Shown: positions 38,314 to 64,000, numbered from the stretch's first letter. The stretch: 64,000 nt of DNA from Minisyncoccota bacterium (GCA_965267345.1 OZ253947.1:573043-637042); one strand, 5' to 3'. Numbers and translations are program-made. Notes: generated by a model not told the origin, from the sequence alone.

Positions 38314-38314
38314 C

Positions 38315-38911: not shown

Positions 38912-39002
38912 AAATGAATTTCGTTGACCACGATATAAGTGTGCATTACCATGCACAGTACGGTCAAGTTGTGGCCGCAACGCGCAATTTGGAGGAAATT
39001 CT

Positions 39003-48060: not shown

Positions 48061-49425
48061 CTAATTGTGTATAAGTGTTCGGACATGATTAACCTCTTGG
48101 TCGAGGATTGGGTCAATCTTTATCTCCCCTTTCACCTTCTCACATGAGTGAATTACTGTTGTGTGGTCACGGCCACCAAGTTTTTCTCCAATACTTGGAT
48201 AGGAAATACCAAAATCTTCACGCAGGATGTACATAATGACCTGTCGCGGACGCACCACCTCTTTCTTACGCGTCTTTTTATAGATGTTTTGCTCATCTAC
48301 TTCGTAGTATTCTGCGATTTTCTTCACAACATCAACCACCGAAATATTTTTATTCGGTTTTGTGGTGTTCTTCACCACATTTTGTACCTCCTGTGTACTG
48401 AGCTCCTTACCCTTAAGTTGTGTTTTGCACATAAGGGTGTTTAAAAGCCCCTCAAGCTCACGAATGTTACCTGGAACTTCTTTTGCCATGTACTCAATTA
48501 CGTCTTGGGGCACTAAAAAGTCGTGCTGCCGTGCTTTCTCGCGCAAAATTTCAATACGTGACTCCACATCAGGGTTTGGGATCTCAGCGATCATACCGGC
48601 GCTAAACCGCCCGCGTAGGCGGTCTTCGAGTCCAAGAAGGTTATTCGGGTGCTTATCTGACGAGAAGACAATTTGTTTGTTGTTGTCGTAGAGTGCATTA
48701 AAGAGATGGAAAAGCTCTTCTTGGGTGCGCTCTTTATCGGCAACAAATTGAATGTCGTCCATGATTAGTACGTCATACTGACGGTACTTGTCTTTAAAGG
48801 TATTTCCCTTCCCTGTTTTAATCGCATTAATGAAGTCCATCACAAATCGCTCCGAGGTGACGTAAAACACCTTCCGATTCGAGTTGGTTTTCTTTAAATG
48901 GTTGCCAATCGCCTGTATCAGGTGGGTTTTACCATGTCCTGTCGCACCGTAAATAAAAAGTGGGTTGTAGGTCAGGCCTGGATTTTGAATAACCGCCTGA
49001 GCTGCGGCGTGCGCGAGCTGGTTGAAGGGGCCGACAACAAACGTATCAAAAGTGTAGCGCGGGTTAAGGTTGTCACGTCGGTCAATAAACATGTCCTGCA
49101 ACGGCATCTGATTCTGCGGCGTGGTGGTCTGTGTTGGAATACGTTGTTCCCCTGCAGCCTTTTTTGCCGCATTCTTCGTCACCACATACTCGATACCGCG
49201 GATTCTATCTTCGAATCCACGCAGTGTTTTTAAAAGAAACTTGTGATGCTTCTCTTGGAGCCAGTCTTTAACAATTTTATTTGGAACGCCGATAAATACG
49301 ATGCCCGCGTCGCGCTTAATGATGATGGTGTCCTTAAACCATGTGCGAAAACTTGCCTCTGATGTGTTCATTTCAATATGAACGAGCGTGTTTTGCCACA
49401 ATTCTTGGTCACTCAACATACGCAA
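48061..49425 (-). CDS. dnaA: chromosomal replication initiator DnaA
   Basis: AAA+ Walker [11 protein letters not shown], sensor motifs and a C-terminal DnaA-box-binding HTH (..[10 protein letters not shown]..). Confidence 0.95.
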
Positions 49426-49706
49426 AGTTTCCGTATTATATACAAGCTCTGTGGATAAGTAAAAAATGCCTCAAAATGCACTTCTATGTGGATAGTGTGG
49501 GGATAAGTAATGACGTGTACCCTACCTCACGTTTATCGCAGGTGGTGCTTACGGACAAAACTCTTAACGAGAGAGCCGTTGATACACCTGTTGCGGCGTT
49601 TATCATGACTCCGCCGACAAAAAGCAGCTTTTACATGTATGTGTATAGTAGTATCTCTATCCACAGAGTATTGCTTTTTGTCTGTTTTTGCGTAGTATGT
49701 GTCCCC
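49426..49706. other. oriC part 2: DnaA-box cluster upstream of dnaA
   Basis: Perfect TGTGGATAA at about 49450. Near-consensus boxes TGTGGATAG and TGGGGATAA at about 49487-49505. CTATCCACA at about 49666. Confidence 0.7.
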
Positions 49707-49847
49707 ATGTCAACAAAGCGAACATATCAACCAAAAAAGCGAAAGCGCCAGCGAAAGCACGGCTTTCTTTCGCGCACACTTACTGCAGCAGGTCGTCGCG
49801 TGCTACGCGCACGCCGTCGTCGCGGGCGCAAGTCTCTCGCGGTGTAG
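49707..49847 (+). CDS. rpmH: 50S ribosomal protein L34
   Basis: [46 protein letters not shown]. The track ORF was a longer upstream frame. Confidence 0.9.
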
Positions 49848-49907
49848 GAATCGTTTTGTTACCTCTCTTTCAAACAGTGTACGGGTACCGTACACTGTTT
49901 TGGTATA

Positions 49908-50234
49908 GTGCCTATGCTCAGTAAGAAGAACCGCGCCACAACACACGACATACGCGAAACACTCGGCCGACGGCATACGACACGCCACGGCTCGCACCTG
50001 TCACTGCGCTACTCACACGAGCACATCGATGCGCCACTGTGTAGTGTTGTTGTCTCAAAACGCGTCGCTCGCACCGCTGTCGCTCGCAATGCGCTCAAGC
50101 GCAAGCTCCGCGCCGCACTCAAAGAGATCGAGCACCTTCTCCCCCGCCGCACCATCATCGTGTACGCAAAAACAACAGCGCGGGATTTGTCGGTGCGGGA
50201 AGCCGCGACGGAGATACTCAACCTACTCGCGTAG
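49908..50234 (+). CDS. rnpA: ribonuclease P protein component
   Basis: Basic 108-aa protein following rpmH, with ..KRVARTAVARNALKRKLR.. RnpA motif. Confidence 0.8.
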   Translation: MPMLSKKNRATTHDIRETLGRRHTTRHGSHLSLRYSHEHIDAPLCSVVVSKRVARTAVARNALKRKLRAALKEIEHLLPRRTIIVYAKTTARDLSVREAATEILNLLA

Positions 50235-50285
50235 AGCGTTTACTTCGCCCATACTCTGCGCTACTATGCGTCGGTACTCACTACT

Positions 50286-51023
50286 ATGTTTAATACGTTC
50301 ATCTACACACCCCTGTATAACGGCCTCATCCTCTTCATCGATTTTGTGCCGTATGCCGATGTGGGCATCGCTGTTATTTTGCTCACGATTCTCGTAAAGC
50401 TCATACTCTTTCCACTGGCGCACAAGGCAGCGCACACACAAGCGCGTATGCGCACCATGGCGCCGCTCATTGAGGAGCTCAAGGAGACCTATAAAGATGA
50501 CCGTCAGCAGCAGACGCTGAAAATGATGGAGCTGTACCGTGAGCATAATGTACGGCCATTTTTTAGTCTGCTCACTATCCTCATTCAACTCCCGATTATT
50601 CTCGGGCTGTACTGGGTCTTTTTTAAGGGTGGTTTGCCAACCGTTAATCCCGACATACTCTATAGCTTTGTGCCGTTTCCCGATAACGTGAATATGCAAT
50701 TTCTCGGCCTCATTGACATGGGAAGCCGCAGTCTCCTTTTGGCAGCACTTGCCGGTCTGACACAGTTTGTGCACACCTACTTTGCGCTGCCGGCACCGGC
50801 AAAGCGCAGCGAGAATCCGTCACTTAAAGAAGATTTGGCGCGCAGCTTCCACCTTCAAATGAAATACGTCATGCCGATCATTGTTGCCGTGGTCGCCTAC
50901 ATCATCTCAGCCGCCATTGCACTCTACTGGATTACCAGCAACCTCTTTGCTATCGGCCAAGAGCTTATGGTACGCCGCCAAATTGCGAAAGCTGAGAATA
51001 CATCCGCGCATGACAACACATAA
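50286..51023 (+). CDS. yidC: membrane protein insertase YidC (short form)
   Basis: Five TM helices with the YidC/Oxa1 core pattern. Position after rnpA. Confidence 0.85.
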   Translation: MFNTFIYTPLYNGLILFIDFVPYADVGIAVILLTILVKLILFPLAHKAAHTQARMRTMAPLIEELKETYKDDRQQQTLKMMELYREHNVRPFFSLLTILIQLPIILGLYWVFFKGGLPTVNPDILYSFVPFPDNVNMQFLGLIDMGSRSLLLAALAGLTQFVHTYFALPAPAKRSENPSLKEDLARSFHLQMKYVMPIIVAVVAYIISAAIALYWITSNLFAIGQELMVRRQIAKAENTSAHDNT

Positions 51024-51456
51024 CGACATACAAACATTTATTGAAACACTTTTAACGAAACTCGGTGTTACCTTTGAGCGCATTGAGCTCGTTGAAGTTG
51101 CCGGCCAACAGCTATTTGAAATTCACACGGACGACAGCGCACAGCTGGTCGGAAATAAAGGAGCCACAATACGGGCGATAAACCACATTGTTAAGAAAGC
51201 GTTTGATGGTGACGACGCGCCCCGCTTCTCTATCGATGTAAACGGATACCAGACAAAGCGCATTGATGAGCTGAAAGAGACAGCGCGACTCTTGGCCGAT
51301 CGAGCGCGATCGCTTAAGTACAATGTTGAAATGAACCCCATGAGCTCGTATGAACGCATGATTGTTCATGCAGCGCTCACTGACGAGCCCGAAGTTACGA
51401 CTGAATCACAAGGTGAAGGACGTGAACGCCGCGTTGTCATTCGCCATACCGGCTAA
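51010..51456 (+). CDS. jag: Jag/KhpB-like RNA-binding protein (KH + R3H domains)
   Basis: ..GNKGATIRAINHIVKKA.. (KH) and ..MSSYERMIVHAALTD.. (R3H). Start trimmed to MTTHNDIQ. Confidence 0.8.
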   Translation: MTTHNDIQTFIETLLTKLGVTFERIELVEVAGQQLFEIHTDDSAQLVGNKGATIRAINHIVKKAFDGDDAPRFSIDVNGYQTKRIDELKETARLLADRARSLKYNVEMNPMSSYERMIVHAALTDEPEVTTESQGEGRERRVVIRHTG

Positions 51457-52247
51457 TTTGCGGTAGTGCATCGGCGCGCACCAATAGCTCCTCCATCGCG
51501 CGCGAGTGCCTCATCACAGAGGCTTTTTGATGTAGCGCAATGAAAACCACGCCCATCTTGATAGCACCACATTCCCGTCACATCTTCCTGTACTATCTCC
51601 CGTTGTGTGTAAAACGTTGTACCGCCGATGTTCGTGGTTGTGTTTGCCGTAAGTGGGAGTGCACAGCAAAGGTCAGACGCGCTATTTCCAATATTGCCAC
51701 ACACATTCGCATCTGCAGAAACCCAGTCAGAGCCTCGTGCAGCACATCCCTGACTGCGCGGCGTCCAGCGGGCATCTTGGTATTGTGTGCCGTACGCATT
51801 CGGCCCGACACGATTCGTAGGACCTGTGTAAGGGGTATACTCGCTTGTAGTGCGTTCAATTGTTGCACTCGGCAGTAAGAAGTTAAGTTTTAATATATCG
51901 GGATTGATTTGATTGAAAAAAAGCCAAATACCCAGCAGCATAATGAGCCCTAACACTGCTTGTCGGATGCGCTCGACACTCTCTTTTTTCCCCGAAACGG
52001 CGTCAGTGGTCATGTACTGCAACCCAGCAGTAGCGATAATAATGACCGCCAAGGAGCTGCCGATAGCAAGCGCCAAACTGAAGAGGTTGTTAAAAAAGCC
52101 CACCAAACCCTGCTGGCTAATGAGATTTGTCGCAAAATCAGTAAGCCCTTGGAAGTTACTGAGTTCTTGCGCGTATACCGCAGTCGGTAGTGCGGTAAGC
52201 GCAAACAGTGCAAAAGCGTATGTCAGGTTACGATGTTTCATTTTCAT
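51453..52247 (-). CDS. VirB2/TrbC-like pilin candidate with Cys-rich C-terminal extension
   Basis: Signal peptide (MKMKHRNLTYAFALFALTALPTAVYA), then two hydrophobic helices separated by a short loop, then a roughly 150-aa Cys-rich region. The pilin call rests on topology only. Confidence 0.4.
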   Translation of the reverse strand: MKMKHRNLTYAFALFALTALPTAVYAQELSNFQGLTDFATNLISQQGLVGFFNNLFSLALAIGSSLAVIIIATAGLQYMTTDAVSGKKESVERIRQAVLGLIMLLGIWLFFNQINPDILKLNFLLPSATIERTTSEYTPYTGPTNRVGPNAYGTQYQDARWTPRSQGCAARGSDWVSADANVCGNIGNSASDLCCALPLTANTTTNIGGTTFYTQREIVQEDVTGMWCYQDGRGFHCATSKSLCDEALARDGGAIGARRCTTAN

Positions 52248-53478
52248 TGTCAGGTGTTGGCAGTAGCAGCGACCACAGCGTTTGGTCGGTGCGATTGGTA
52301 AAGAAGACAACATCACCTGTAGCATTAAAGAAAAGCTCTTCGGCTGCAAGTGTCGTATTTACTGATGACTGTGGTGAGAAGAGTTCAATCGCTTCAACAC
52401 CCTCATCGGTGACCATGAGTTGCCAGAACGAAGTAGCAAGCTGTACGCGTCCTTTGTACCAGTCGTCAGGGTAGCGCGCCTGTGGGAATGTTGTGGGTAC
52501 GGCGCAGATGGCATGTGCTGCATCTGTTGGGTTCCATGCACACAAACTCGCAAAAGTGCGCATCGGCAACTCAGTGCGCTCTCCTGACGCCCCTTGCACG
52601 AAAAGACGTGGTGCGGCGCCATCTTCCGCACTGGTGCTATACAAAAGCACGTCACCACTTGGGCTCATGCGCGTTTCAAGTGCACTGAGTCGTGAGATAA
52701 CGGGTGTTGCTGAACTATCTGCAAGACTGATGTGCACGGCAGTTCCCGTTACACCCGCTGCTGCGTGCTGCGTCAGCACTATGGTCTCATCATTCACCCA
52801 CGCCACGTGCCACGAGCGCAGTGTCGACTCCCACGCCACTTCTGCATTGGAGCCGTCAGCGTCAACGATGACGAGATTTGCCCCGCGCGATGTCGGCTGT
52901 ACGTAGGCAAGGCGTTGCGTGTCGGGACTGCGCGCAACGCTCCGTGTGTTTGGCGGAAGTGAGGTGGTGATGTCTGTGCTCCCCACAGGTTTAATGACGG
53001 AGATAAGTCGCTCGCGCTCATCGAGGTAGCGCAGTAGCACTGAGTCTGTGTCGTCAACAAACACTGCGTCGTAGACCTGTGGAATGGTTGTCTGTGCAAT
53101 ACGTTCTGTTTCCCCGCCGCGTTGTGGCCGCGAAAAAATGTGGCCGGTTGCGCGATCGACAAAGAGTACATCTGTCGGTGTTGTGGCCGCACCGGCAACG
53201 GGCAGGTTGTATACCTGTTGCAGCTGTATTCTATCGCGTGGTGATGTCGTTGTTGCTGCCGACGTGTCTAAATCAGTGTCAGTGTCGGTACCGAAGAATC
53301 CGCCAAAAAAGCCGCTCCCGCCACTTCCTCCTGCTCCTGTGCCGGTGTACCCGACGTCTTGTGTTCCTTCGCGGAGTTGCTGTTGCTGGGTACCAATAAA
53401 GAGTGCCCACCCAATAAGCGTCACAATCAGTACGATGACAACGGCGGCGGCAATGATGTAGATGGTTCGCGTATTCAT
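52228..53478 (-). CDS. hypothetical N-terminally anchored protein, beta-rich (propeller-like)
   Basis: One TM helix and 416 aa. Part of the minus-strand T4SS-like cluster. Confidence 0.45.
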   Translation of the reverse strand: MNTRTIYIIAAAVVIVLIVTLIGWALFIGTQQQQLREGTQDVGYTGTGAGGSGGSGFFGGFFGTDTDTDLDTSAATTTSPRDRIQLQQVYNLPVAGAATTPTDVLFVDRATGHIFSRPQRGGETERIAQTTIPQVYDAVFVDDTDSVLLRYLDERERLISVIKPVGSTDITTSLPPNTRSVARSPDTQRLAYVQPTSRGANLVIVDADGSNAEVAWESTLRSWHVAWVNDETIVLTQHAAAGVTGTAVHISLADSSATPVISRLSALETRMSPSGDVLLYSTSAEDGAAPRLFVQGASGERTELPMRTFASLCAWNPTDAAHAICAVPTTFPQARYPDDWYKGRVQLATSFWQLMVTDEGVEAIELFSPQSSVNTTLAAEELFFNATGDVVFFTNRTDQTLWSLLLPTPDNENETS

Positions 53479-53481
53479 ACT

Positions 53482-54504
53482 CTAAAATCCGAATAAGGTA
53501 CGACGGGCGTCGGCTTCAAATGTAAACTGCCACTGCGCTTGTACCGACTGCAGCAGGTGATCATTGTGGTCGATTGAGAGTGAGGCGTAGGTGGTGACGT
53601 CTTCGTCGGCGTCGAGCTGAAGTGTCAGGAGTGCAGGGTTAGCTTCGTCTCCCAACACCGACGCACTGTTGATGCGCCAGTCGTAGAGCAGCACGGCATC
53701 ACTGGCGCGCTGCGCCGCCATGTAGTACGGTACCGCACTGATTTGTGTTTGGGAGGCGCCCGTAAATGTGTGGGCAGCGCCGATAGCCGTATGGTATTGA
53801 ATGCCGGTGAGCGGATCGTACTCATACAGGACGATATCAGGTTCATCAGTGCTAATGCGCGCACCTGCTGTCCCGAGCACACGCCCGTCGGCAGTGGTCA
53901 CCTCAACTGACAAAATATAGGTGCCAAGGAATTTTGGCCCCGTAAGGGCAATACCGTCAACACCCCGCCCTGATTGGTTGCCGAGTACCGTTGTGTCGCG
54001 TCGCCACGTGTAGAGCAACTCATCAGCGGCGAGACGCTCCCCGTCAGCGCTTTCTGCGTGTACGAATGCCTGTGCACGGATGGTACTGCCGCTCGTGTAG
54101 CGCGCGCGGCCACGATAAAAGGGCGGTGTGTAGGTGTCGGCTTCCCACGACACACTTACCACGGCCGGTTGCACGGTAACACTGTTGTTGAGCACGGTAC
54201 CGTCAGTCGTGCGGATGAATACTGCTAATTCACTTTGGTCGCCAAGCGCGCCGGCGACAAAAGATGTTTGCACAAGACCGATTCCTTCGGCGATGACCTC
54301 ATCGTTGAGCACCCAGATAATATCAGCAGAGCGTACGTCTTCGTCGAGCGACGAAACCGTCGCCACCACCTCTTCATTAGGGGCTGGTTGTGCGGGAGTG
54401 AGGGTGATGTCAACGCGCGAAAATGACTCAAACGGCACTTGCGCCGCCACACCAAGGGGTGCGCACAGAAGCATCACGCCTATGACAGCATGTCGGAGAA
54501 ACAT
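53482..54504 (-). CDS. hypothetical secreted protein
   Basis: Signal peptide and 340 aa. No assignable domain. Confidence 0.45.
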   Translation of the reverse strand: MFLRHAVIGVMLLCAPLGVAAQVPFESFSRVDITLTPAQPAPNEEVVATVSSLDEDVRSADIIWVLNDEVIAEGIGLVQTSFVAGALGDQSELAVFIRTTDGTVLNNSVTVQPAVVSVSWEADTYTPPFYRGRARYTSGSTIRAQAFVHAESADGERLAADELLYTWRRDTTVLGNQSGRGVDGIALTGPKFLGTYILSVEVTTADGRVLGTAGARISTDEPDIVLYEYDPLTGIQYHTAIGAAHTFTGASQTQISAVPYYMAAQRASDAVLLYDWRINSASVLGDEANPALLTLQLDADEDVTTYASLSIDHNDHLLQSVQAQWQFTFEADARRTLFGF

Positions 54505-54537
54505 GGTGCCATTATACCTCCCTTCCCCTGCTTCGTA

Positions 54538-54975
54538 TTAGGCGGCACGGGACAAGTTGCGCGGCGCGCCACGTCCGCGGCGCCCGTTGTCATTGGCAGT
54601 ACGTCGCTGCTGCGGGGCGTTTTCTTCGCGTACTTTTTCATTGTGTTCGTCATCTTCTTTTTGTATGTGGTGGACAGAATACCACGTTACTGCCGTCCAC
54701 ATCGGAAACATGCTCAGCGGCAGTGGGAGTATTTCGGCGAGCACTGCAAACCACTTTGCTACGAGGCGCTTGTGGCTTGAAAAGAGCGGAATGCCGAGTA
54801 CGCGGAACCAAATAAGAAAGACGACCGTGAGCAAGAAGGAGATAATCATATTGATCACCCAACCGAAACCAAACGGAATCCACCCCAATAGAAATTGCAA
54901 GCTGTCGCCAACAGCGGCGACACCAATGAGGAGCCCTTTCTGCATTGGCACCACGCGCTGTCGTTCTTCGTCCAT
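54538..54975 (-). CDS. hypothetical integral membrane protein
   Basis: Three to four TM helices. Immediately downstream of virB4. Confidence 0.4.
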   Translation of the reverse strand: MDEERQRVVPMQKGLLIGVAAVGDSLQFLLGWIPFGFGWVINMIISFLLTVVFLIWFRVLGIPLFSSHKRLVAKWFAVLAEILPLPLSMFPMWTAVTWYSVHHIQKEDDEHNEKVREENAPQQRRTANDNGRRGRGAPRNLSRAA

Positions 54976-54978
54976 AGG

Positions 54979-56835
54979 CTACTGGGTTGGAATATCGCGC
55001 GTCGGTGTCTGCTGCTGCGCGTCGGTGTCTGCCACTTCCTGCTTTGCTTTTTTAATTGCCAGAATTTGAGACGGGTCGGAGGTGATGATTTGGTCTTCGG
55101 TGTAACTGGCGATCACCTTAATGGCGACGTGTTTAAGGCCGGCAAAGAAAATGCCCTCCCCCACATCTGATTCAAGTAAAAGGTACTTTTCTTCGTCGGA
55201 GAGCTTAAAGGTTTCCTGAATCAGGTCAATCGAGGTCGGTGACTGACGTAGGAGAATCTGAATTGAGGAGTTAGTGATCATGGCTTTGCCGTACGAGCTG
55301 TTGAGGAAGTCGGCGACGTCTTGCGTGATGGTTGCCAGTCCGAGGTAGTACTTACGGCCACGCTTGGCAATACTGAAGAGGAATGAAGCGGTATCTTCTG
55401 ACTTCATCATCCACCATGCCTCGTCAATCACGAGCAGGCGTTTACGCAAATTTTTTCGCACCATGTTCCAGATATGGTGGGTCACGAGGTACATAGCAAC
55501 CGGCTTGAGCTCGTCTTCCATGTCGCGAATGCTGAAGACGACAAAGCGCTTGTTCATGTCGACATTCGTCGGTTGGTTGATGAAGCCCGCCCACGTACCA
55601 CGGGTATATTTCGACATGCGTTGCACGAGCGACTCAGATCCTTCCATACCCGAAAGCACGAGTTCAAAGTCTGAGAGCAGCGGCGGCTCAAGGTTCGTGA
55701 AATCAGAATCAGGGGTGATGTCTTTCAGTGCGTAGGTTTCCGTGATGGCGCGGTCGATAATCGCGTCTTCCTCAGGGGTGAGACCGCCGAGCATGATACG
55801 GAAAAGGCCGACGAGTGTGATGATGTTGTTGCGCAGCACGTCTCCCGGACTTTCGTCTTCACGCGGTACGGGTAAATCAAACGGGTTAATGTGGTGCTGG
55901 GACGAAAGTGAAATGTTGAAATAGCGCCCCCCTGTTGTTTCGGCAAGGTACTCGTACTCGCGCTCAGGGTCGATCACAATCACGTCTGCATCGAACATCA
56001 GTGAGCGAATAATCTCCAGCTTGGTCATGTACGACTTACCGGCACCCGACTTGGCGAATACGACTGAGTTGTAGTTTTCGAGACTAAAGCGGTCGAAGAG
56101 AACAAGGCTCGAGTTGTGGCGGTTAATACCGTAGAGAATACCGCGGTCGCTGGTGAGGTCGAATGAGATAAACGGAAAGATGCTCGACAGTGGTGACGAG
56201 TTGAGTTTTGAGTGCACGTCGAGCTCATCTCTGGCAATTGGCATGACGCTACGAAATCCGGGTTCCTGCTGAAACAGCGCCGGTTTGAGGTAGACAAGTC
56301 GCGACTCAAGAATGGAGCGAATCTCGGACTCCGCCTTATCAATTTCGTCGCGCGTATCGCCGTAAATGGTGAGGTAAAGACCGACTTCAAACATTTTCTC
56401 CTGTGCTTGTTGCAGACGATCACGGAGAAACTCAAGGTCGGAGTACGCGGTGTCGAGCATCGGGTCGCGCACCAGTCCCTTCTCCTCGCGGATAGCAATC
56501 TGACTCTCCACCTCGGCAACTTTCTTCTGGAATTTGCGCAACACCGTGGTGGTATCCATTGGGTGCACAAAAATAGACACATCAAACACCTTGTCGAGGT
56601 TGATGATTGGTGAAAACCATCCCGTTGTTAAGAAACGTGGATACGAAATCACAAAGAAGGTACGCGCCACCTTTTCGCCGAGGTTCAGTGCCCGTGGGGT
56701 AATCTGGAGTGCCGACGGCGCAATAACGTCTTGTAGCTCGAGAACGCCGTGTTTGTAGATCTCCTCGGGGAGAATCGGAATCGGCTCACGCGCATCCTCG
56801 TCCTTTTTCTTCGAGAAAAAATCAAACAACGCCAT
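54979..56835 (-). CDS. virB4: VirB4/TrbE/CagE-family type IV secretion ATPase
   Basis: Walker A ..VVFAKSGAGKSYMTK.., Walker B ..LLVIDEAWWM.., ..LGLATITQDVADF.. and a typical N-terminal domain (..LQITPRALNLGEKVARTFFV..). Confidence 0.85.
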   Translation of the reverse strand: MALFDFFSKKKDEDAREPIPILPEEIYKHGVLELQDVIAPSALQITPRALNLGEKVARTFFVISYPRFLTTGWFSPIINLDKVFDVSIFVHPMDTTTVLRKFQKKVAEVESQIAIREEKGLVRDPMLDTAYSDLEFLRDRLQQAQEKMFEVGLYLTIYGDTRDEIDKAESEIRSILESRLVYLKPALFQQEPGFRSVMPIARDELDVHSKLNSSPLSSIFPFISFDLTSDRGILYGINRHNSSLVLFDRFSLENYNSVVFAKSGAGKSYMTKLEIIRSLMFDADVIVIDPEREYEYLAETTGGRYFNISLSSQHHINPFDLPVPREDESPGDVLRNNIITLVGLFRIMLGGLTPEEDAIIDRAITETYALKDITPDSDFTNLEPPLLSDFELVLSGMEGSESLVQRMSKYTRGTWAGFINQPTNVDMNKRFVVFSIRDMEDELKPVAMYLVTHHIWNMVRKNLRKRLLVIDEAWWMMKSEDTASFLFSIAKRGRKYYLGLATITQDVADFLNSSYGKAMITNSSIQILLRQSPTSIDLIQETFKLSDEEKYLLLESDVGEGIFFAGLKHVAIKVIASYTEDQIITSDPSQILAIKKAKQEVADTDAQQQTPTRDIPTQ

Positions 56836-56883
56836 GAGGACATTATAGCGTACGTTACACGCTCATTAGAGAACTACTGGGCA

Positions 56884-57546
56884 CTACCGCTGGCGAGATA
56901 CCTCACTCGCCATCTGCGGCTTCTCCTGCTCTCCCGGGTTAAAGATCTTGTAGAGTAACTCAACGACCTCTTCGGTGTCGAGCTGTACGGTACGTACACC
57001 GGTACGCACCAATCCTTGCTGCACAATTGAGATACGCTGGTCGAGCTGTGAGACGTTTTCTTCGAACGTTGACTGATCGGTCGTGTCGCCCTCTTTGCCG
57101 CCGCCGACAAACGGAATGTTGCTCAAAATCCCTTTGTTGATTGCCAGTGGTGCAGGATCATACGGCACGACGACGAAAAAGTGTTTCGTCATGATGTTTG
57201 CGCCCTCAACGAAGCTGCGAATGAAGTCGATATACTCGCGAATTTGGATACGCATAAGGTCGTCCATGGTGTTTTTGTAGGCATCTTCGAGTGTCGCCAA
57301 ATAGGGACGAATATCAAGATCGCGTGACTGGATGTAGATCTGCACCGAGAAATCGAGTGAGTTAAAGAAGTTTTGGAATTGCACGATAAATGCGCTCTGC
57401 TCATCGTCACTTTTAAGGGCGAAGTTGAGTGATGACGCCATCAGTACGGCGCGCAAGCCACCGTCGCGAAGCATAACGACACCGTCGCGCACCTCTTTCA
57501 CAGGAACGAAATCTTGTGATGCTTGTGATGTAGTTTTGTTTGGCAT
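56884..57546 (-). CDS. stand-alone protein resembling the N-terminal domain of VirB4-family ATPases
   Basis: ..DFVPVKEVRDGVVMLRDGGLRAVLMASSLNFALKSDDEQ.. and ..SLDFSVQIYIQSRDLD.. parallel ..INLDKVFDVSIFVHPMD.. in the adjacent VirB4. No ATPase motifs. Confidence 0.45.
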   Translation of the reverse strand: MPNKTTSQASQDFVPVKEVRDGVVMLRDGGLRAVLMASSLNFALKSDDEQSAFIVQFQNFFNSLDFSVQIYIQSRDLDIRPYLATLEDAYKNTMDDLMRIQIREYIDFIRSFVEGANIMTKHFFVVVPYDPAPLAINKGILSNIPFVGGGKEGDTTDQSTFEENVSQLDQRISIVQQGLVRTGVRTVQLDTEEVVELLYKIFNPGEQEKPQMASEVSRQR

Positions 57547-57551
57547 ATTAC

Positions 57552-58004
57552 TTACGAGCGAGATGTGGCGTCAATGGTAGTCTCCGGCTGGCTGAGGCGA
57601 AGGCGTTCATTAATGTCGAGGCTCCACGCGAGTTCCTTCAGTTTATTCTCCGAGAGCGACGGAACGGGCACCTGACTCTCGGGCTGCACTTCGGCCTTTG
57701 TGGTGCGCTGCTGCTGTTTTTCCTGACGGTGGGCGTCCCAGAGGTAGAGTTTGCTGTGTACAAAGTACATGACACCCGCTTCCACCATTTCAATGAATGG
57801 CTTCTTGTTTATTTTAACAAATGCCAGCGCAACTGAGAGGCCCACTACTGCTGCGGCAATGGGGAGTGCGACAATGATCGGAAGTGCGCGCCAGATGAGA
57901 AATGCAAGACCGGCGCCACCCGCAAGGTAGACAAATTGTTTGAGCGTGAGCGGACCAAAAATCCGATCTTCCACTTCAATAAATTGCGGTACTTGGTACT
58001 GCAT
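57552..58004 (-). CDS. PrgI/VirB3-like small membrane protein
   Basis: N-terminus MQYQVPQFIEVEDRIFGPLTLKQFVYLAGG.. followed by two TM helices, the PrgI-family pattern. Confidence 0.6.
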   Translation of the reverse strand: MQYQVPQFIEVEDRIFGPLTLKQFVYLAGGAGLAFLIWRALPIIVALPIAAAVVGLSVALAFVKINKKPFIEMVEAGVMYFVHSKLYLWDAHRQEKQQQRTTKAEVQPESQVPVPSLSENKLKELAWSLDINERLRLSQPETTIDATSRS

Positions 58005-58030
58005 ACTGCTTTCATACTACCACGCCCACC

Positions 58031-58534
58031 CTACTCAATTGATTCACGATACGGGTCATCCTGTACATCGCGTCGCTCGAGACTGCTCTCGCCGGAGCGA
58101 TACGCTAAGCTATCAGTCGGGCGCTGCTTTTGTTCGGTGGTCGTCTGCTCAACGGCGGCTGCCTCCTCGTGTTCAGCGTGTGCATCACGGCCGCTTTGGG
58201 TAAGTTCGCGCTGCATCTGTTCGCGAATAGGTTCAAAGACTTCGTCAACGATGTCGTTAACGATTGTTTGTGCCAGTTTTTTGTCGATAGAGAGCTCACG
58301 AGCGATATTGCTCGTCATCTCTTCCGGCTCAGCAATGCCGAGTAATACGAGCAGAATCTCATTTTCAAGCAGTACCCACTGATCGAGATGAAGCTTGTGC
58401 TTCTCGGCAAGAGCGCGCATGTGCTTTGAAATATCGGCATCTTCAATTGCGCGCTGGAGTGCTACAGGAAGCGCTGCGAAGCGCTCTTCAAGTATGGTGC
58501 TGCTGTTATTCTCGGTTTGTGTGTCTTTAGGCAT
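58031..58534 (-). CDS. hypothetical cytoplasmic protein in the T4SS-like cluster
   Basis: Start set at MPKDTQTENN, 1 nt after the VirB6-like stop. The track ORF overlapped the upstream gene by 170 nt. Confidence 0.4.
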   Translation of the reverse strand: MPKDTQTENNSSTILEERFAALPVALQRAIEDADISKHMRALAEKHKLHLDQWVLLENEILLVLLGIAEPEEMTSNIARELSIDKKLAQTIVNDIVDEVFEPIREQMQRELTQSGRDAHAEHEEAAAVEQTTTEQKQRPTDSLAYRSGESSLERRDVQDDPYRESIE

Positions 58535-58535
58535 A

Positions 58536-61016
58536 CTACTCGCTTGTGTCACTTCCCTTTTGGATTCTATCGAGGCGTTTTTTAATATCTTCGAGACTCT
58601 CACTTGTTGCATCAGTATCTTTTTCCTTTGCAAGTTTAGCAGCGACAGCCTTACGCATACTCCTTGAAGGACCACCGAAGAATCCTCCCTTTTCCTTGTA
58701 TTCATTGAGCGCTTGTTGGCGTGCTAGTTTTTTGTATTCTTCACGGTGTTGCGCTTTCTCTTCGGGTGTTTCTGTTTTTTGATGCTGTTCTTGACTACTC
58801 AGTGCTTCGTCTGCCATCTCTTGAGTCATTCGGTCTGAGGTACCTGCAAACGCCTCTTGCTCTTTTTGTGTTAATCCCTTTTGTACAGCAGCAGCCTGTT
58901 GTGCAATTGCGTCGTCTTCGCCTGCAATGTCATTGCGTTTACCCTGCCCTGTGGTGTCTTTTGGCGCAGGTGGCGCTTGTGGTGTTTCTGGCGCACGCAC
59001 ATCACCAGATGGTACATCTTGAGTTGGCGCTGCTGCGCCCGCGCCGCTTGCTGCAGGCTGTGCGTCGGTATCACGCTTCTGTGCACCTTCAAGTTCAGCG
59101 TTAATTTCATCTAACCGCGCGCTCTTTTCGAGTCGCTCCTCATCAGACAATGCACTCGCGTTCGGGCTGCTCGTTTCTTGTTCGAGCCGTGCGCGTTCTC
59201 TCTCGAGTGCGGCAATGTCCGTATCAGTTAGTGGATTGCGTGCGGATGGCACACCCTGTGCTCCTGATGCTTCTCGTTTCGCGCGTTCCGCAAGGCGGTC
59301 TATCTCGTTCCCTTTACCGCCTATCTCGTTTGCTTGTTTGCGCGCCGCGTTTTCTCGTTCATCATTTTCCGTCCCCTGTTGCGTTGCGGCGTCCACCTGC
59401 GGTTCGGTAATTCGGACAGACGGTGCTTTTGTGTCGCGCTTCTCACGTGCTGCCTCATCAGGCGTTGTTTCAGACGGCATACGCTGCGGCTGCGCAAGGC
59501 CCTGCTCGCGTTCTTTTTCTCTGCGGTCGTAGTCGCTCATAAGTTCCTCAAAGCGAGTGTCTACAGGCTTTCGGGCGTAATCGGCTTCCGTTTTGATGCT
59601 TGCATCGTAACTTGGTTTTTGCTCAGGTTGCTTTATACCCAGATTCTTACCAAGCTTCGTGGTGCGAGCATCAAATGAATAACGGGAAAGATTGTTGCCA
59701 AGTCGTAGTTTTGCACGAGTGGCGATACTGTCCTGTCCCGACGCAATCTTTTCATTCGCTTCGCGGCTCCACTTCACTCCACGACCACCTAGTGTACGTC
59801 GGCCAGCCCAGCCGCCCAGCGCGGCAAAGGCGCCGAACGGTGAAACACCCCACCCGAGCGACTTTCTCGACAGATCAGTGGCAAATTTGGCACCAAACAG
59901 TGACAGCGAACTGGCGATCTGCAAAGACGCATAAAACAAACCAACCACGATGAGCGCGACCATAAGAGGTTCCCATGAGCCAATGCCTAGGGAGTCGCTG
60001 CTGGTCTCAATTACTCTCGCAATATCACCGTCAGAGAGCGTATTTGCAATATTCGAGGAAGCCCATAGGAGGAGCATAAAGACGGGTGCAAATAGCGCAT
60101 TTTTAATCAACGCGCTCCACCACTGTCCCCACCACTGTCCACCCTGTTTCGGTACGAGGTATGCGGCAAATGCCAGTGCCGAGAGTACCATCAACAGTAA
60201 AAAGACAATAGCGCGCGACAGCAGCAGTATGGTGCCGAGGAGGAATACTGCAATAAGAAGTGCGTAGAATGTCATCATAATCAGCCCGTACATAAGCACT
60301 CCTTGGATGTCACTGATGCCAGTGAGGGCATCTTGGGCACCGGTAAACCCTACTCGACCAAGTCCTGATTTTTGCAGGAAGCCCTCGGCAATAGCGATGC
60401 GACCATCACTGTCTGAGAGGTTAATTGCTTGCACAAATTGCGTTGCCGTGGCATTGGATACGTCAATAATTGCTTGCGTGAAAAACAGACTAAAGTTAAT
60501 GAGCAACGCAATGAGTACGAGGCGGATAACGAGCTGCTTAATGCCGTAGCTTTGAATGTTGAGAATAACGAGAAAGGCAATAAACACGAACAGCGCAATC
60601 ATTACGATGTTCGCGATATCACGAAACCCTTCCCATGCCGTATCGATACCACCTTGGACCGCGCCAAGTAATTCAGGGTTACCAAAATTCACGACAGTGT
60701 AGTACACAGCGTAGTCAAAACCTTCGGCAATCACCAGCATAATGTTGCCAAACATACCTGAAAGAAGGATGACGATAGTTTTTAAGGCGCCGGTTATTAG
60801 TTCGTAAAGCCCTCCACCGAAATAATTTAAAGCTTTTTCGATTATACTGGCATCCTGATCAGTGGTTTCTGCCTGAGTTTGTGCGTGTGCAAAAGCGGGG
60901 GCAACTGCCGTCTCGCTCACGGTTAGTGGCGCAAACACAGCAGGCATAAGCAGTAGCACCATCATCACACCCGCTCCGATGCGTCGCCACCACGTATGTG
61001 TCACAAAATGCGCCAT
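58536..61016 (-). CDS. VirB6/TrbL-like polytopic membrane protein with long charged C-terminal tail
   Basis: Signal/TM start, about 8 TM helices in the first roughly 400 aa, then a roughly 400-aa E/K/R/Q-rich coiled-coil-like region. Confidence 0.55.
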   Translation of the reverse strand: MAHFVTHTWWRRIGAGVMMVLLLMPAVFAPLTVSETAVAPAFAHAQTQAETTDQDASIIEKALNYFGGGLYELITGALKTIVILLSGMFGNIMLVIAEGFDYAVYYTVVNFGNPELLGAVQGGIDTAWEGFRDIANIVMIALFVFIAFLVILNIQSYGIKQLVIRLVLIALLINFSLFFTQAIIDVSNATATQFVQAINLSDSDGRIAIAEGFLQKSGLGRVGFTGAQDALTGISDIQGVLMYGLIMMTFYALLIAVFLLGTILLLSRAIVFLLLMVLSALAFAAYLVPKQGGQWWGQWWSALIKNALFAPVFMLLLWASSNIANTLSDGDIARVIETSSDSLGIGSWEPLMVALIVVGLFYASLQIASSLSLFGAKFATDLSRKSLGWGVSPFGAFAALGGWAGRRTLGGRGVKWSREANEKIASGQDSIATRAKLRLGNNLSRYSFDARTTKLGKNLGIKQPEQKPSYDASIKTEADYARKPVDTRFEELMSDYDRREKEREQGLAQPQRMPSETTPDEAAREKRDTKAPSVRITEPQVDAATQQGTENDERENAARKQANEIGGKGNEIDRLAERAKREASGAQGVPSARNPLTDTDIAALERERARLEQETSSPNASALSDEERLEKSARLDEINAELEGAQKRDTDAQPAASGAGAAAPTQDVPSGDVRAPETPQAPPAPKDTTGQGKRNDIAGEDDAIAQQAAAVQKGLTQKEQEAFAGTSDRMTQEMADEALSSQEQHQKTETPEEKAQHREEYKKLARQQALNEYKEKGGFFGGPSRSMRKAVAAKLAKEKDTDATSESLEDIKKRLDRIQKGSDTSE

Positions 61017-61019
61017 AGG

Positions 61020-63086
61020 CTATGAGGTAGGGGTTGCTACCGGTTTACACCACCCCGCTTCCCAACTTTCGCGCGTGTCCTCAAGCAGTTGTTCAGTGGC
61101 GCCTTCGAGTTCGGCCGCCTGCGTTTTTGCCTGACGCAATTGCGTGTCAGTGTGAATGAGGCGTGCACTGACGAGCGAATCAACTTGCTCGAGCAAATAG
61201 CGCTGCGCACTGCTAGACGTCGTGTTTGCCAGCGTGGTGCGAATGAGCTGTAATGCTTGGAGTGCACGGTCTGAGGTTGTTGTATTTTGCGCTATAAGTT
61301 CAATCCCAGGGGTAATGTTTTGTGCGATTATGGCGTCGGAGCGGTTTGTCGAGCGGGTGACGGTACGCTCGGCGCTGTAGGAGTTGTATGAGCCACTCAC
61401 CGTGATAGGCGGCAGTACCGATGCGGGGGTGAGTGTGACGCCGCCCGCACTCGTCTTCTTTTGTGCACTGATGGTTACGGGGTTGACGGTGCCACTGGTG
61501 TTGCGTATTTCTTGTGCAGAAAAGGTTACGGTGCCATCACCGAGATTGGCGAGTGTGATTGACGGTGTCGCCCACATCCCACTGGCAGCAAGTGTGGCCT
61601 CGACAGGATTGAGTTCGGTTTCGTCTCCTGAAAGCGTCACAGTGACGCGCGAGTCAGTGCGGGTTGCCTGTCCTTCAACAACCACGCTCGTTGCACCGGC
61701 ACTATAGTAGCCGAGTTCATCTTCAGGCAATCGCTCGGTGACGACAATTGAGATGTTACACGACGTGTTGGCGTCGTCGTCTGACTGCGTGTTGCATGCC
61801 TGCGCACGAATTTCATTACGCACGGCCGTTTTTGCTTCTTCAACTTTTTGGCTCCAACAGGTACGCTCCCATGACTGCAGCTGACGGCGGGCTTGTTGGA
61901 GGGTGGCAAGTGCTGAGTCCCACGTGTTGCTGTACTCTTCCTCGATACTCAGTGCGTTGTTGAGTGTTTGTGATGCCACACCCGTCATCGCGCCGCGTGT
62001 GCGCGAGGCGGTGTCCTGCGCCAAGCGGTCGATGTATGGCGCTTGGCCGTTGATGGCGCGCGACAAACCACTGAAGCCTTCTTGGCCGGCGAGCGCTTCG
62101 GTGCCGATATTCGCCATGAGTGTTGAAATGATCTCATCAATCTCATCGGCGCTCTCCGCCTGACGGAGGCCGGTACCGACGGTCTGGCTCAGTTGTGCCG
62201 CAATGAGGTAGCCCGGAGTTGAAATGCGACTCAAGCGTACCGTTTCGCCGTTACCAACATCAATGTCCTGTGTAGTTTCCAGTGAACGAAAGCCGTTACC
62301 CCACTGCAGTTGCGTGAGCTCCTCTTGCTGCGCGTTGCTAATTGATTGGCGTAAATAGTTTTCCGCAGTGCTGTACGCAAAGAGCGGGTTACATGCCGGC
62401 TCTGTCAGGAATGCCTGATACGCGCGCATGTACCGTTCACCACTGAGCGCACCTTGTGAAAATGCCTCAAGCTCGCTGTCGGGGAGGCTACAACGCAGGA
62501 CATGTTCCGGCGAGCGCGTCTGTTGTGAGTATGACTTAGCGAGGCTCACGCGCACATCACGACGGAACGGTCCGGGAAGGACGTCAGTTTCTGCACCGGT
62601 GATGATGCGCTCAGCTGTCGGGTCTGAAATACGCTCAAGCAAATGGAGGTTCGTATCTTCAACGTACGTCGGGTTACCGTTAAAGCCGGTATTTGCCCAG
62701 CGTACGGTGCTGCGAATCAGCGAGGAGACGAGCGTTTGGCGCATGTTGGTGTAGACACCGTCGAGCAAGCACTCTTTGTAGGTCAGCAGGCGGGTTTGGT
62801 CGAAGCTGGCATTATCAAATGTCGGCACGTGTGCACCACTCGGACCCTGCGCGCCGACAGCGCCGTACGCTGAACCCGTACAACCATACACACCGTCGCG
62901 GGAGAATCCGGAAACCTGCTGCGCTGTTGAGGTTGCATTTTCGAGGTTGCGCACATTCTGGATGACTTCCTCAAACGGATTCTCAGTAGCTTCCGCATCG
63001 TCGGTGTTCGTTTGCGCAGCAGCTGTCGCCGGCAGCACCATGCTACAGGTTACAAGGAGCGTGAGTATGTAAATGTGCAGACGCAT
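61020..63086 (-). CDS. large secreted hypothetical protein
   Basis: 688 aa with a signal peptide and Thr/Ser-rich C-terminal region. First-but-one gene of the cluster. Confidence 0.5.
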   Translation of the reverse strand: MRLHIYILTLLVTCSMVLPATAAAQTNTDDAEATENPFEEVIQNVRNLENATSTAQQVSGFSRDGVYGCTGSAYGAVGAQGPSGAHVPTFDNASFDQTRLLTYKECLLDGVYTNMRQTLVSSLIRSTVRWANTGFNGNPTYVEDTNLHLLERISDPTAERIITGAETDVLPGPFRRDVRVSLAKSYSQQTRSPEHVLRCSLPDSELEAFSQGALSGERYMRAYQAFLTEPACNPLFAYSTAENYLRQSISNAQQEELTQLQWGNGFRSLETTQDIDVGNGETVRLSRISTPGYLIAAQLSQTVGTGLRQAESADEIDEIISTLMANIGTEALAGQEGFSGLSRAINGQAPYIDRLAQDTASRTRGAMTGVASQTLNNALSIEEEYSNTWDSALATLQQARRQLQSWERTCWSQKVEEAKTAVRNEIRAQACNTQSDDDANTSCNISIVVTERLPEDELGYYSAGATSVVVEGQATRTDSRVTVTLSGDETELNPVEATLAASGMWATPSITLANLGDGTVTFSAQEIRNTSGTVNPVTISAQKKTSAGGVTLTPASVLPPITVSGSYNSYSAERTVTRSTNRSDAIIAQNITPGIELIAQNTTTSDRALQALQLIRTTLANTTSSSAQRYLLEQVDSLVSARLIHTDTQLRQAKTQAAELEGATEQLLEDTRESWEAGWCKPVATPTS

Positions 63087-63093
63087 GAATCAA

Positions 63094-64000
63094 TTATAAG
63101 CCCTCCTTAAGGGTGAAATAAATGTCGAGTTGGTTATAGGCAGCACGGATCATGTCTTCCTGTTCGATGAATTGGCGTGTTGCCACAAAGGCAAGGAGCG
63201 GATCGTCGGGTGTCTCAGCCATATCCTCGAGCACCGAAGCGAAGCGGACAAAACTGTTGATGACGTCGCGGTGTACTAGTGCCGCATCAGCGGGTACTTC
63301 CATGCGCAGCAAGTTATCGGCGATCGTGCGGTAGGTAGCGCTTGCGGCGCGCAGCTTGGCAAACTCTGCGGCATCATTCTGTTCGATTGCCCGCCCGTAC
63401 GTCGTCAATTCGTACTCGGTTACGTCGGTGATCGGAAGCATGGCCTGCTGCAAGTCGGCTTGGTAGCGTGCGATGCTCTGTGCCGAGACGTCTTCGCGCG
63501 TCGTGATATCAGCGCGCGCGTATGTCTGGACGGTATCACCAACTTGAAATTGAGCGTTTGCTGCTTCGGCAATCACGAAGTTAAACGCATCCTCATCGAA
63601 GGTCCCCTGCTGCTTTGCTTGGATGTACGTGCCAAAAATTTGTCGCGTGAGCTGGTCGGTGCGCGTCAGTGGCGTTGTGGTGCCCGTCTGTCCGTCGGTG
63701 TTGTTTGCGAGCGAGAAGGCAGCGCGCGCATTCTCAACCTCATCACCGTCGGAGATGCCGTCACCATTCGAGTCGGGGTTGTTGGGGTCGGTGCCGATGA
63801 GCGTCTCTTCCCAATCGCGCAGTCCGTCGTTGTCTGAGTCCCGCATGTACTCTTCTGACGCGAGTGCGTTTTCGTAGCTGGTGGGTGTGGCAAGCGGGGT
63901 GTCAGTTGCGTGCGGCGCAAGCACCTGCCACGCACCGACCGCAAGTAATACACCACCAAAAACAAGGGCGGCGATGACCTTACCGCTTCGAATTGGTATG
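63094..64000 (-). CDS. secreted protein with thrombospondin-type-3-like Asp repeats; 5' end runs off the window
   Basis: ..DSDNDGLRDWEETLIGTDPNNPDSNGDGISDGDE... The in-frame upstream sequence to the window edge encodes a hydrophobic signal-like segment with no stop, so the track start (GTG at 63924) is internal. Confidence 0.5.
   Translation of the reverse strand, partial: IPIRSGKVIAALVFGGVLLAVGAWQVLAPHATDTPLATPTSYENALASEEYMRDSDNDGLRDWEETLIGTDPNNPDSNGDGISDGDEVENARAAFSLANNTDGQTGTTTPLTRTDQLTRQIFGTYIQAKQQGTFDEDAFNFVIAEAANAQFQVGDTVQTYARADITTREDVSAQSIARYQADLQQAMLPITDVTEYELTTYGRAIEQNDAAEFAKLRAASATYRTIADNLLRMEVPADAALVHRDVINSFVRFASVLEDMAETPDDPLLAFVATRQFIEQEDMIRAAYNQLDIYFTLKEGL

Follow-up and report, generated by a model that had tools for sequence, protein, structure and literature searches.

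What is a type IV secretion system (T4SS) doing head-on to replication and directly beside a chromosomal origin: has a mobile element landed there, or does the system belong to the ancestral chromosome, and if so, what might it be for? The question is raised by a stretch of 64,000 nucleotides (nt) from a Minisyncoccota bacterium (GCA_965267345.1, OZ253947.1:573043-637042), hereafter the window, which represents 64 kb of a genome of about 644 kb and to which our window gene searches apply. From the end of jag to the right-hand edge, the window carries 11 consecutive open reading frames (ORFs), all on the minus strand from 51453 onwards, just as an initial annotation of this DNA had described them, and separated by 3-48 nt or overlapping. 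That annotation took them to be a T4SS-like cluster inserted beside the replication origin, oriC. We conclude instead that the cluster is conserved core synteny of its class, neither an insertion nor an integrative and conjugative element (ICE), because it keeps the same order and orientation in relatives and matches its surroundings in composition. As read from sequence, it is very probably a chromosomal, vertically inherited T4SS of the Patescibacteria clade (nested in the mating-pair formation class MPF-FATA) and of Kaiserbacteria type (Paceibacteria), fixed by oriC and transcribed towards it. That such a vertically inherited system serves a non-conjugative role in filament formation or host contact is, taken as a whole, a probable explanation; the particular mechanism proposed below, a pilus or channel acting in host contact, is put forward tentatively.

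Comparisons were made with 80 species-level loci taken from GTDB species representatives (loci L007-L086), labelled Kaiser-, Taylor-, Nomura-, Zambryski- and Adlerbacteria, Paceibacter and others, across which synteny was tabulated by tblastn and median identities were taken to the window proteins. A further relative, L001, whose VirB4 is 90% identical to that of the window, served to read the region beyond 64000. Positional orthologues numbered 45 for the pilin and 44 for the VirB6-like protein, and AlphaFold2 (AF2) models were available for residues 1-440 of the 826-amino-acid (aa) protein (predicted local distance difference test score, pLDDT, 77) and for the 688-aa protein (pLDDT 76).

The secretion core and its operon

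The cluster comprises, from jag to the window edge:

51453-52247, minus strand: VirB2-like T4SS pilin, 262-264 aa, called from PF18895 and orthologues; its stop codon overlaps that of jag
52228-53478, minus strand: N-terminal membrane anchor, Gly/Thr/Asp-rich linker and TolB-like beta-propeller with conserved Cys, 416 aa
53482-54504, minus strand: secreted protein of 340 aa, made of three Ig-like repeats in tandem, in which a W-x-x-NG motif recurs
54538-54975, minus strand: small polytopic membrane protein with about three hydrophobic segments, 145 aa
54979-56835, minus strand: VirB4-family ATPase, C-terminal motor part, 618 aa (NF045971, PF19044)
56884-57546, minus strand: TrsD-like protein, a separate VirB4 N-terminal domain, 220 aa
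57552-58004, minus strand: PrgI/VirB3-like membrane protein, 150 aa (PF12666, 34.4 bits, cutoff 27)
58031-58534, minus strand: soluble acidic helical protein of about 167 aa, without a transmembrane segment
58536-61016, minus strand: putative extended VirB6/TrbL-like polytopic membrane protein, 826 aa, called from fold search and orthologues
61020-63086, minus strand: secreted 688-aa protein with a signal peptide, for which an AF2 model was used
63094-64000, minus strand: membrane-anchored protein with bacterial TSP3 (calcium-binding) repeats, running off the window edge

In relatives one further cluster gene lies upstream; the operon has at least 12 genes. Its motor is a VirB4 that scores 367.6 bits (cutoff 325) against NF045971, the model for CD1110-family VirB4, over model positions 184-733 of 752, and reaches E 1.1e-26 against PF19044; Walker A (AKSGAGKSY) and Walker B (LLVIDEAWW) motifs are legible in the translation. 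The TrsD-like protein matches the TrsD model NF041427 and, in the VirB4 models NF045971 and NF045975 (43 bits), the first 120 or so positions; PF26593 (TraC-like) is present in an orthologue. As coverage of the VirB4 model begins at 184, the gene at 56884-57546 therefore supplies the missing N-terminal domain, and this division of VirB4 into two genes is kept in 77 of the 80 loci, with TrsD-like lengths of 207-225 aa. Two genes upstream of virB4 lies the PrgI/VirB3-like gene, present in 74/80 loci. In Kaiserbacteria and other Paceibacteria, VirB4 homologues have identities of 73-94%; more than 120 cluster representatives are listed at 82-100% identity, the named ones being Kaiserbacteria, Parcubacteria or Minisyncoccia, and the close homologues (73-100% identity) all come from Patescibacteria/Paceibacteria genomes or metagenomes.

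The 826-aa protein combines a helical membrane domain of about 390 residues with a charged, low-complexity C-terminal tail of about 400. Its assignment rests on fold search because a profile search of the PDB gave low-complexity or chance matches only: among the five best Foldseek matches of its model to the PDB, four were TrwI/VirB6 of R388 (8rt9_F, 8rtd_L, 7o3v_F/J). PF04610 (TrbL) is matched by six of the 44 orthologues, and homologues carry precomputed PF04610/PF19590 matches, so that with moderate confidence the protein may be called an 'extended VirB6'. Overall, the initial calls of VirB4, PrgI/VirB3-like, VirB6-like and VirB2-like pilin proteins hold in profile and fold searches, those of VirB6 and the pilin being borderline for the window proteins themselves and leaning on orthologues. 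The two remaining small genes are less readily named. The 145-aa protein was preferred over an antisense ORF (54557-55069) on its GC1/2/3 pattern (GC content by codon position); it has a 138-aa orthologue in the same position in L001 and weak DUF485/DUF3810 matches only. The start of the acidic protein was set at MPKDTQ to abut the upstream gene; its orthologue in L001 has 163 aa and no overlap, and no family match was found in Pfam or NCBIfam.

Inserted or ancestral

In L001 the gene order runs uvrD, ksgA, a divergent 116-aa gene, 13 cluster genes, convergent jag-yidC-rnpA, dnaA-dnaN, an 86-aa ORF and PBP1. Because of that order, the start of the TSP3 gene, one more cluster gene (about 305 aa in relatives) and then housekeeping genes, rather than a relaxase or T4CP (type IV coupling protein), most likely lie beyond 64000. 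The order uvrD-ksgA-cluster-yidC...dnaA-dnaN-PBP1 recurs among the 80 Paceibacteria genomes: wherever yidC was found (55/55 loci) it is downstream of the cluster and on the other strand, dnaA lies downstream on the virB4 strand in 48/48, and ksgA lies upstream in 38/47. Of the 57 informative genomes, 55 share this position, order and orientation, the exceptions being L038 and L084, which have neither yidC nor dnaA in the 10 kb downstream.

Composition tells the same story. The cluster has a GC content of 0.533 against 0.535 for co-directional genes in the rest of the window, with similar GC3, and a GC3 skew of -0.12 on its coding strand is as expected of genes that have long resided on the lagging strand. 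Codon usage was considered as a sign of foreign origin and rejected: the distance of 0.415 to the rest of the window stands at the top of the range of null blocks (0.29-0.41), marginally above their maximum of 0.409, and is explained by strand-specific third-position bias.

The pattern of conservation is likewise that of a resident system. Median identity across the 80 genomes is 77% for VirB4, 58% for TrsD and 48% for PrgI, falling to 33% for the pilin and 26-31% for the exported or anchored and VirB6-like proteins; housekeeping proteins in the same loci stand at 56% (DnaA), 56% (UvrD), 48% (PBP1), 48% (KsgA), 46% (YidC) and 42% (DnaN). Few proteins of these genomes are thus as constrained as the cytoplasmic motor, whilst the parts exposed to the outside evolve fast, and a motor constrained above DnaA together with fast-evolving exposed parts points to selection at the host interface.

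These results bear directly on the proposal that a recent mobile element, an ICE or its remnant, inserted itself beside oriC. The VirB4, PrgI, TrsD and VirB6 families do derive from the conjugation machinery of monoderms (PMC12102498), the cluster is oriented opposite to its neighbours, and its codon-usage distance is the high one just given. Against this, the same site, order and orientation recur in relatives, the GC content is that of the window, the small codon shift is of the kind that a lagging-strand bias of C3 over G3 would produce, VirB4 surpasses DnaA in conservation, and the system, if acquired, was acquired by the ancestor of the phylum (PMC12102498). Nor are the usual companions of a mobile element present: profile searches found relaxase, type IV coupling protein (T4CP) or integrase domains in no sizeable window ORF, as had been claimed at the outset, no tRNA gene adjoins the cluster (all seven in the window lie at 4.7-21 kb), and no flanking repeat was found at the cluster. 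In L001 there is no relaxase or T4CP within 10 kb either side of virB4 and no integrase in the 10 kb upstream, ksgA and uvrD standing there instead, so that the view beyond 64000 afforded by relatives is of one more cluster gene followed by housekeeping genes. The initial annotation would have recognised an ordinary ICE by core synteny with a relaxase and T4CP immediately adjacent; the core synteny exists, but the adjacent relaxase and T4CP do not. With composition equal to that of the window and synteny extending across the class, recent insertion is extremely unlikely, and the operon, as an ancient and immobile part of the chromosome, is better studied as core physiology than as a mobile element.

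Orientation relative to the replication origin

The neighbourhood of the origin contains:

46702-47814, minus strand: dnaN
48061-49425, minus strand: dnaA
48041-49665, no strand: probable oriC region flanking dnaA, with groups of DnaA boxes in the dnaN-dnaA and dnaA-rpmH intergenic regions
49708-49848, plus strand: rpmH, identified by reading the sequence
49708-51456, plus strand: rpmH-rnpA-yidC-jag operon, convergent with the T4SS operon (Pfam Ribonuclease_P, 60KD_IMP, R3H/KH)

The origin most probably lies at 48.0-49.7 kb. The window holds 18 near-consensus DnaA boxes, a number reached in 0 of 100 shuffles, and six of the 18 fall beside dnaA, at 48041-48074 (48041 and 48066) and 49450-49665 (49450, 49487, 49498 and 49657); GC content falls to 0.43 in the region flanking dnaA, and the cumulative GC skew of the window reaches its minimum at about 51-52 kb. 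With the origin placed there by DnaA boxes, skew minimum and dnaA context, the rightward fork meets the cluster head-on, and the gene map agrees with the original statement that the cluster opposes the fork leaving oriC. The accompanying statement that the genes to the left of oriC are essentially all co-directional with their fork was too strong. After exclusion of shadow ORFs (plus-strand products of greedy ORF calling left of oriC, in which GC2 exceeds GC1), 36 of the 48 genes are co-directional, as are 74% of the coding bases, and head-on runs include 15850-20221 (4.4 kb) and PBP1, which directly adjoins dnaN. As about 25% of the genes left of oriC are themselves head-on, one head-on operon is not improbable by chance. 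More noteworthy is that the operon extends over at least 12.5 kb and is conserved.

It is worth adding that the head-on block near oriC is not strictly specific to the T4SS. In relatives, uvrD and ksgA upstream share the orientation of the cluster, so the block extends past the T4SS operon into housekeeping genes; uvrD, encoding an accessory helicase of PcrA/UvrD type, and ksgA occupy L001:1-1398 and equivalent positions in 38/47 loci, corresponding to sequence beyond 64000 in the window. The conserved head-on placement next to the origin might conceivably serve a function, such as tying expression or mutation rate of the operon to the initiation of replication, a reading weaker still than the doubtful one on pilin display given below. 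The proximity of dnaA, dnaN, rnpA, ksgA and rpmH to virB4 in Paceibacteria and Microgenomatia has been read as a possible gene-dosage effect (PMC12102498); the conserved head-on orientation weakens the simple high-expression version of that idea.

Some further observations concern transcription in this region. All seven tRNA genes of the window (4694-21053) are encoded on the minus strand and so run with the leftward fork. The jag and pilin genes converge, and their stop codons overlap (51453-51456), leaving no intergenic room for terminators; a scan for terminators and promoters at this junction found nothing beyond chance, and antisense read-through between the two operons is possible. In L001 the gap between jag and the pilin gene is 27 nt.

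The pilin and its C-terminal extensions

The pilin of the window consists of a signal peptide, a two-helix core (residues ~45-112) and a Cys-rich C-terminal extension of about 150 aa, and PF18895 is matched by 40 of its 45 positional orthologues. The extension is a 150-aa domain with 10 Cys for which there are five relatives among 1.84 billion representatives. A c-type lysozyme identity (2fbd, E 0.02) was entertained and dropped: the catalytic Glu/Asp align to Thr/Ala, and a profile built from four homologues no longer finds lysozyme.

Such extensions are common in the family. They reach at least 100 aa in 34 of the 45 orthologues, with a median of 174 aa, and are hypervariable to the point of not being alignable between lineages. 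In roughly a fifth to a quarter of orthologues Pfam recognises domains of peptidoglycan-active enzymes in the extension: NlpC/P60 (5), Amidase_5 (3), CHAP (2), Peptidase_M15_4 (2), VanY (2), YkuD (2) and Extensin-like_C (1). Pilin core and enzyme share a single ORF, with the core at 83-150 and NlpC/P60 at 227-327 in L050, and at 87-148 and 229-331 respectively in L069; the pilin of L038 has VanY at 239-351. Examples of pilin ORFs with long extensions are:

L048:13534-14619
L050:12989-14023
L069:13095-14108
L038:13044-14111
with others among the orthologues

The place of the pilin gene also differs between lineages: it stands between the Ig-repeat and propeller genes in loci of Nomura-, Zambryski- and Taylorbacteria type (L020-L086), and after the propeller gene in those of Kaiserbacteria type (L001, L007-L018) and in the window.

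In F-type and VirB2 pilins both termini are located on the outside of the pilus, and epitopes fused to the C terminus of F-pilin are displayed. By analogy, surface display of the extension domains is plausible. A bolder idea is that the pilin acts as a display scaffold, each subunit carrying its extension on the outside of the T4SS pilus, so that the pilus itself would be the 'effector' that cuts or binds the host wall in an arms race with the host; we consider this doubtful, but the enzymatic extensions of some lineages suggest concrete biochemical experiments.

Secreted and anchored proteins

The initial annotation counted at least five large secreted or anchored proteins with no recognisable domains. 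They are indeed poorly characterised, but Ig, propeller, TSP3 and fn3-like domains could be detected among them. For the propeller protein, a profile of orthologues matches TolB chains (E 8e-4) over positions 195-318, and an orthologue gives a faint Tricorn_2nd match; the protein is found in 63/80 loci at 23-30% identity. The Ig-repeat protein, with a visible signal peptide, occurs in 75/80 loci, and its profile matches Hoc, an Ig-like capsid decoration protein (3shs, E 1e-4). The TSP3 protein matches PF18884 (TSP3_bac) at E 6.8e-9; its frame is open to the window edge, with an N-terminal transmembrane helix at 63999-63925. The 688-aa protein is modelled with a conserved helical domain at its N terminus and a long antiparallel stalk of helices, at the tip of which an fn3/Ig-like beta-sandwich is inserted. 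Fold matches to this model are generic only, and a profile search of the PDB with the protein gave low-complexity or chance matches only, whilst its orthologues exchange C-terminal modules (F5/8 type C, fn3 or Big_7 domains). It is a candidate surface or stalk adhesin.

A proposed role and its alternatives

How might these parts work together? The membrane core would consist of a hexameric VirB4 ATPase with its detached N-domain (TrsD), PrgI/VirB3 and a VirB6-like platform, and this complex, without a coupling protein, would assemble pilin subunits into a filament or channel that crosses the monoderm wall. In the R388 system, the counterparts of these parts draw VirB2 pilin out of the membrane and polymerise it into a pilus. 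DNA conjugation most likely does not take place, because the cluster has no VirD4-type coupling protein, VirB11 or relaxase. This agrees with the initial view of a minimal monoderm T4SS (PrgI, VirB4, VirB6 and pilin) rather than a complete conjugative element, a view that the component calls and the missing conjugation module uphold. The host-facing part would be formed by the variable C-terminal domain of the pilin and by the Ig-repeat, propeller, helical-stalk/fn3 and TSP3 proteins, mediating contact with the host cell envelope and probably its breaching or exchange across it. A role of this kind would explain why a homologous system is essential for epibiotic growth: in the transposon sequencing of Wang et al. 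(2023), SEML1_0006-0019, which have no recognisable coupling and relaxase proteins, were essential for the epibiotic growth of S. epibionticum (PMC10633639), and a 2025 review repeats the essentiality of that T4SS (PMC12857230). Pilus formation, display of the pilin extensions and the direction and nature of any substrate are all matters that we infer: flow might be outward, carrying effectors, inward, bringing in host material, or nil, with the apparatus then serving adhesion or penetration only.

A number of observations weigh against this account. Firstly, some of the component calls are marginal: the pilin scores 26.5 bits against PF18895 (T4SS_pilin), 0.1 bit under the Pfam cutoff of 26.6; the 826-aa protein of the window itself has no Pfam match; and its fold match to VirB6 is modest (E 4e-3, target-normalised TM-score 0.34-0.48, with a probability of 0.99-1.00). 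Secondly, a VirB8-like protein (bitopic, with NTF2 fold) or a VirB1-like cell-wall hydrolase was found neither among the 11 cluster proteins, with Pfam, NCBIfam and PDB profiles, nor elsewhere in the window; peptidoglycan-hydrolase domains are tied to the cluster only as pilin fusions, in other species, and VirB8 is largely undetectable in Patescibacteria (PMC12102498). Thirdly, the origin is placed by dnaA synteny, DnaA boxes and a weak skew, and GC skew as an independent origin marker gives mixed and weak results in relatives, with the expected signs in 21/48 and 38/48 loci; among those 48, skew like that of the window is confined to the closest, Kaiserbacteria-like loci. Fourthly, the essentiality data come from Saccharimonadia, a different class from Paceibacteria (PMC10633639). 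Finally, the 644-kb genome could have a T4CP gene at some other place; VirD4 homologues are present in most Patescibacteria, usually far from virB4 (PMC12102498).

That last point, and the fraction of the genome covered by the window (64 of about 644 kb), would also suit functional conjugation or DNA export by means of a coupling protein and a relaxase encoded elsewhere. Relaxases, however, occur in just 103 of 3,035 Patescibacteria genomes, and in S. epibionticum the distant T4CP is non-essential and the T4SS essential (PMC12102498). A strictly vertical, hyper-conserved chromosomal operon lacking the context of an origin of transfer (oriT) is moreover unlike a transfer apparatus, and we regard conjugation or DNA export as very unlikely.

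Traffic in the opposite direction deserves somewhat more consideration. An auxotrophic episymbiont might use the system to import host DNA, nucleotides, lipids or other macromolecules, in the manner of Ced or ComB: Patescibacteria lack synthesis of nucleotides, lipids and amino acids (PMC12857230, PMC10633639), the T4SS of the ABY1 class co-localises with comF, recG and radA (PMC12102498), the missing T4CP is in keeping with uptake systems of the ComB kind, and VirB4 has a faint similarity to CedB. That similarity, at 40.1 bits against NF041017, is far under the cutoff of 700, and no component specific to CedA or ComB was found; furthermore, knockout of comEC in S. epibionticum abolished competence and left the cells viable, so that DNA uptake is not the essential role there (PMC12857230). 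Import is accordingly improbable, though it ranks second to a pilus or contact apparatus with possible protein export, which comes first.

The possibility of export can also be taken on its own, as a T4CP-independent effector translocator resembling Bordetella Ptl or Brucella VirB, in which the secreted proteins of the cluster would be substrates or effectors exported by Sec and the pilin-like protein would be only a membrane or channel part. Effector systems without a T4CP exist (PMC12102498, PMC12857230), several cluster proteins have signal peptides and evolve fast, and Wang et al. lean towards export of proteins or an alternative role (PMC10633639); yet no effector-like enzymatic or toxin domain was found in the cluster proteins of the window. 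Seen as a separate explanation this is unlikely, if worth keeping in view, but it overlaps rather than conflicts with the pilus and contact model, and the present data do not discriminate between them. A pilus or contact apparatus with possible protein export thus heads the ranking, with conjugation and recent insertion both unlikely.

Other features of the window

Type IV pilus genes are scattered through the window at 9831-12066 (minus strand), 15850-16737 (plus) and 30302-32239 (plus). They encode PilM (PF11104), PilN (PF05137, ORF 10390-10938), a prepilin with N_methyl/T2SSG and PilB (T2SSE and MshEN), and the ORF beside PilN (9831-10400), without a Pfam match, is possibly PilO-like by position. 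The finding of PilM, PilN, a pilin and PilB agrees with the initial annotation, which had noted type IV pilus genes elsewhere in the window and associated the whole with Patescibacteria of episymbiont type.

A run of minus-strand genes at 21095-27597 contains large ORFs of 657, 498, 352, 267 and 240 aa that lack a Pfam match at E<=1e-4 (an 86-aa ORF at 24643-24903 was not scanned); its first ORF begins with a signal or transmembrane-like segment, and the run may represent a further cluster of envelope genes specific to the lineage. Composition is odd in one part of the window only, 33738-39208 (GC 0.49-0.51 against 0.53-0.57, GC3 0.45-0.46), which encodes a 646-aa membrane protein without a Pfam match and two S-adenosylmethionine (SAM)-methyltransferases, and in which no integrase was found. 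At 39475-41129 (minus strand), about 10 kb from the T4SS operon, a sigma factor of extracytoplasmic function (ECF) type (Sigma70_r2/r4) is followed by a DUF5667 protein, and the two may form a sigma/anti-sigma pair.

Comparison with known systems

The existence of this system, the absence of relaxases and its origin-proximal position have already been published between 2023 and 2025 (PMC12102498, PMC10633639). In these papers and in a search of the literature we found no description of the conserved head-on orientation, of the conservation of VirB4 relative to housekeeping proteins or of pilin-enzyme fusions, and what the present analysis adds is just these: a head-on orientation that is conserved, an unusually strong conservation of VirB4, and pilin extensions that are hypervariable and sometimes enzymatic. 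The Patescibacteria T4SS is the only T4SS reported as essential for growth, and offers a rare molecular handle on the lifestyle of a very large group of ultra-small, host-dependent bacteria.

With the T4SS of Gram-positive monoderms the cluster shares a CD1110-family VirB4, PrgI and a TrsD-like protein, and the lack of a VirB7/9/10 outer-membrane core. It differs in having no relaxase, T4CP, VirB8-like (PrgL/TcpC) or VirB1-like (PrgK/TrsG) protein or PrgB-type adhesin, in possessing a VirB2-like pilin, which Gram-positive systems do without, and in being chromosomal and vertical rather than carried on a mobile element.

The cluster has homologues or fold-mates of VirB2, VirB3, VirB4 and VirB6 of the minimal VirB system of Gram-negative bacteria, as in R388, with TrwI as the best match of the predicted fold of the VirB6-like protein; these four are the ones implicated in pilus biogenesis (Mace et al. 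2022, PMC9259494, on the inner-membrane complex and stalk). The cluster lacks VirB5, VirB7-11 and VirD4 and belongs to a monoderm envelope, and it departs from R388 in the charged tail of about 400 aa on its VirB6-like protein and the extension of about 150 aa on its pilin. Bordetella Ptl and Brucella VirB are similar in being non-conjugative and in having no coupling protein, but both work in diderms, with the whole VirB1-11 core and with effectors or toxin that are known, whereas no effector was identified in the window. Archaeal Ced and Helicobacter pylori ComB likewise pair a VirB4-family motor with the absence of a relaxase; no CedA, CedA1 or CedA2 and no ComB-specific part was found in the cluster.

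The closest likeness is to the T4SS of the Patescibacteria clade itself. In 3,035 Patescibacteria genomes, Quinonero-Coronel et al. (2025) described a monophyletic VirB4 clade nested in MPF-FATA, with TrsD as the commonest companion near virB4, accompanied by PrgI/VirB3, VirB6 and VirB2-like pilins, and with T4CPs rarely adjacent (PMC12102498). Compared with S. epibionticum, which has an array of six short pilins, the window has a single C-terminally extended one; there are no peptidase or lysozyme genes downstream of virB4, and the accessory set differs in consisting of the Ig-repeat, propeller, helical-stalk and TSP3 proteins. In its VirB4, TrsD, PrgI/VirB3, probable VirB6 and VirB2-like pilin, in the lack of a relaxase and of a nearby T4CP, in its chromosomal position near dnaA, dnaN, rnpA, rpmH and ksgA and in the co-occurrence of type IV pili, the window agrees with that clade, and presents a clean example of its Kaiserbacteria type rather than a new kind of system.

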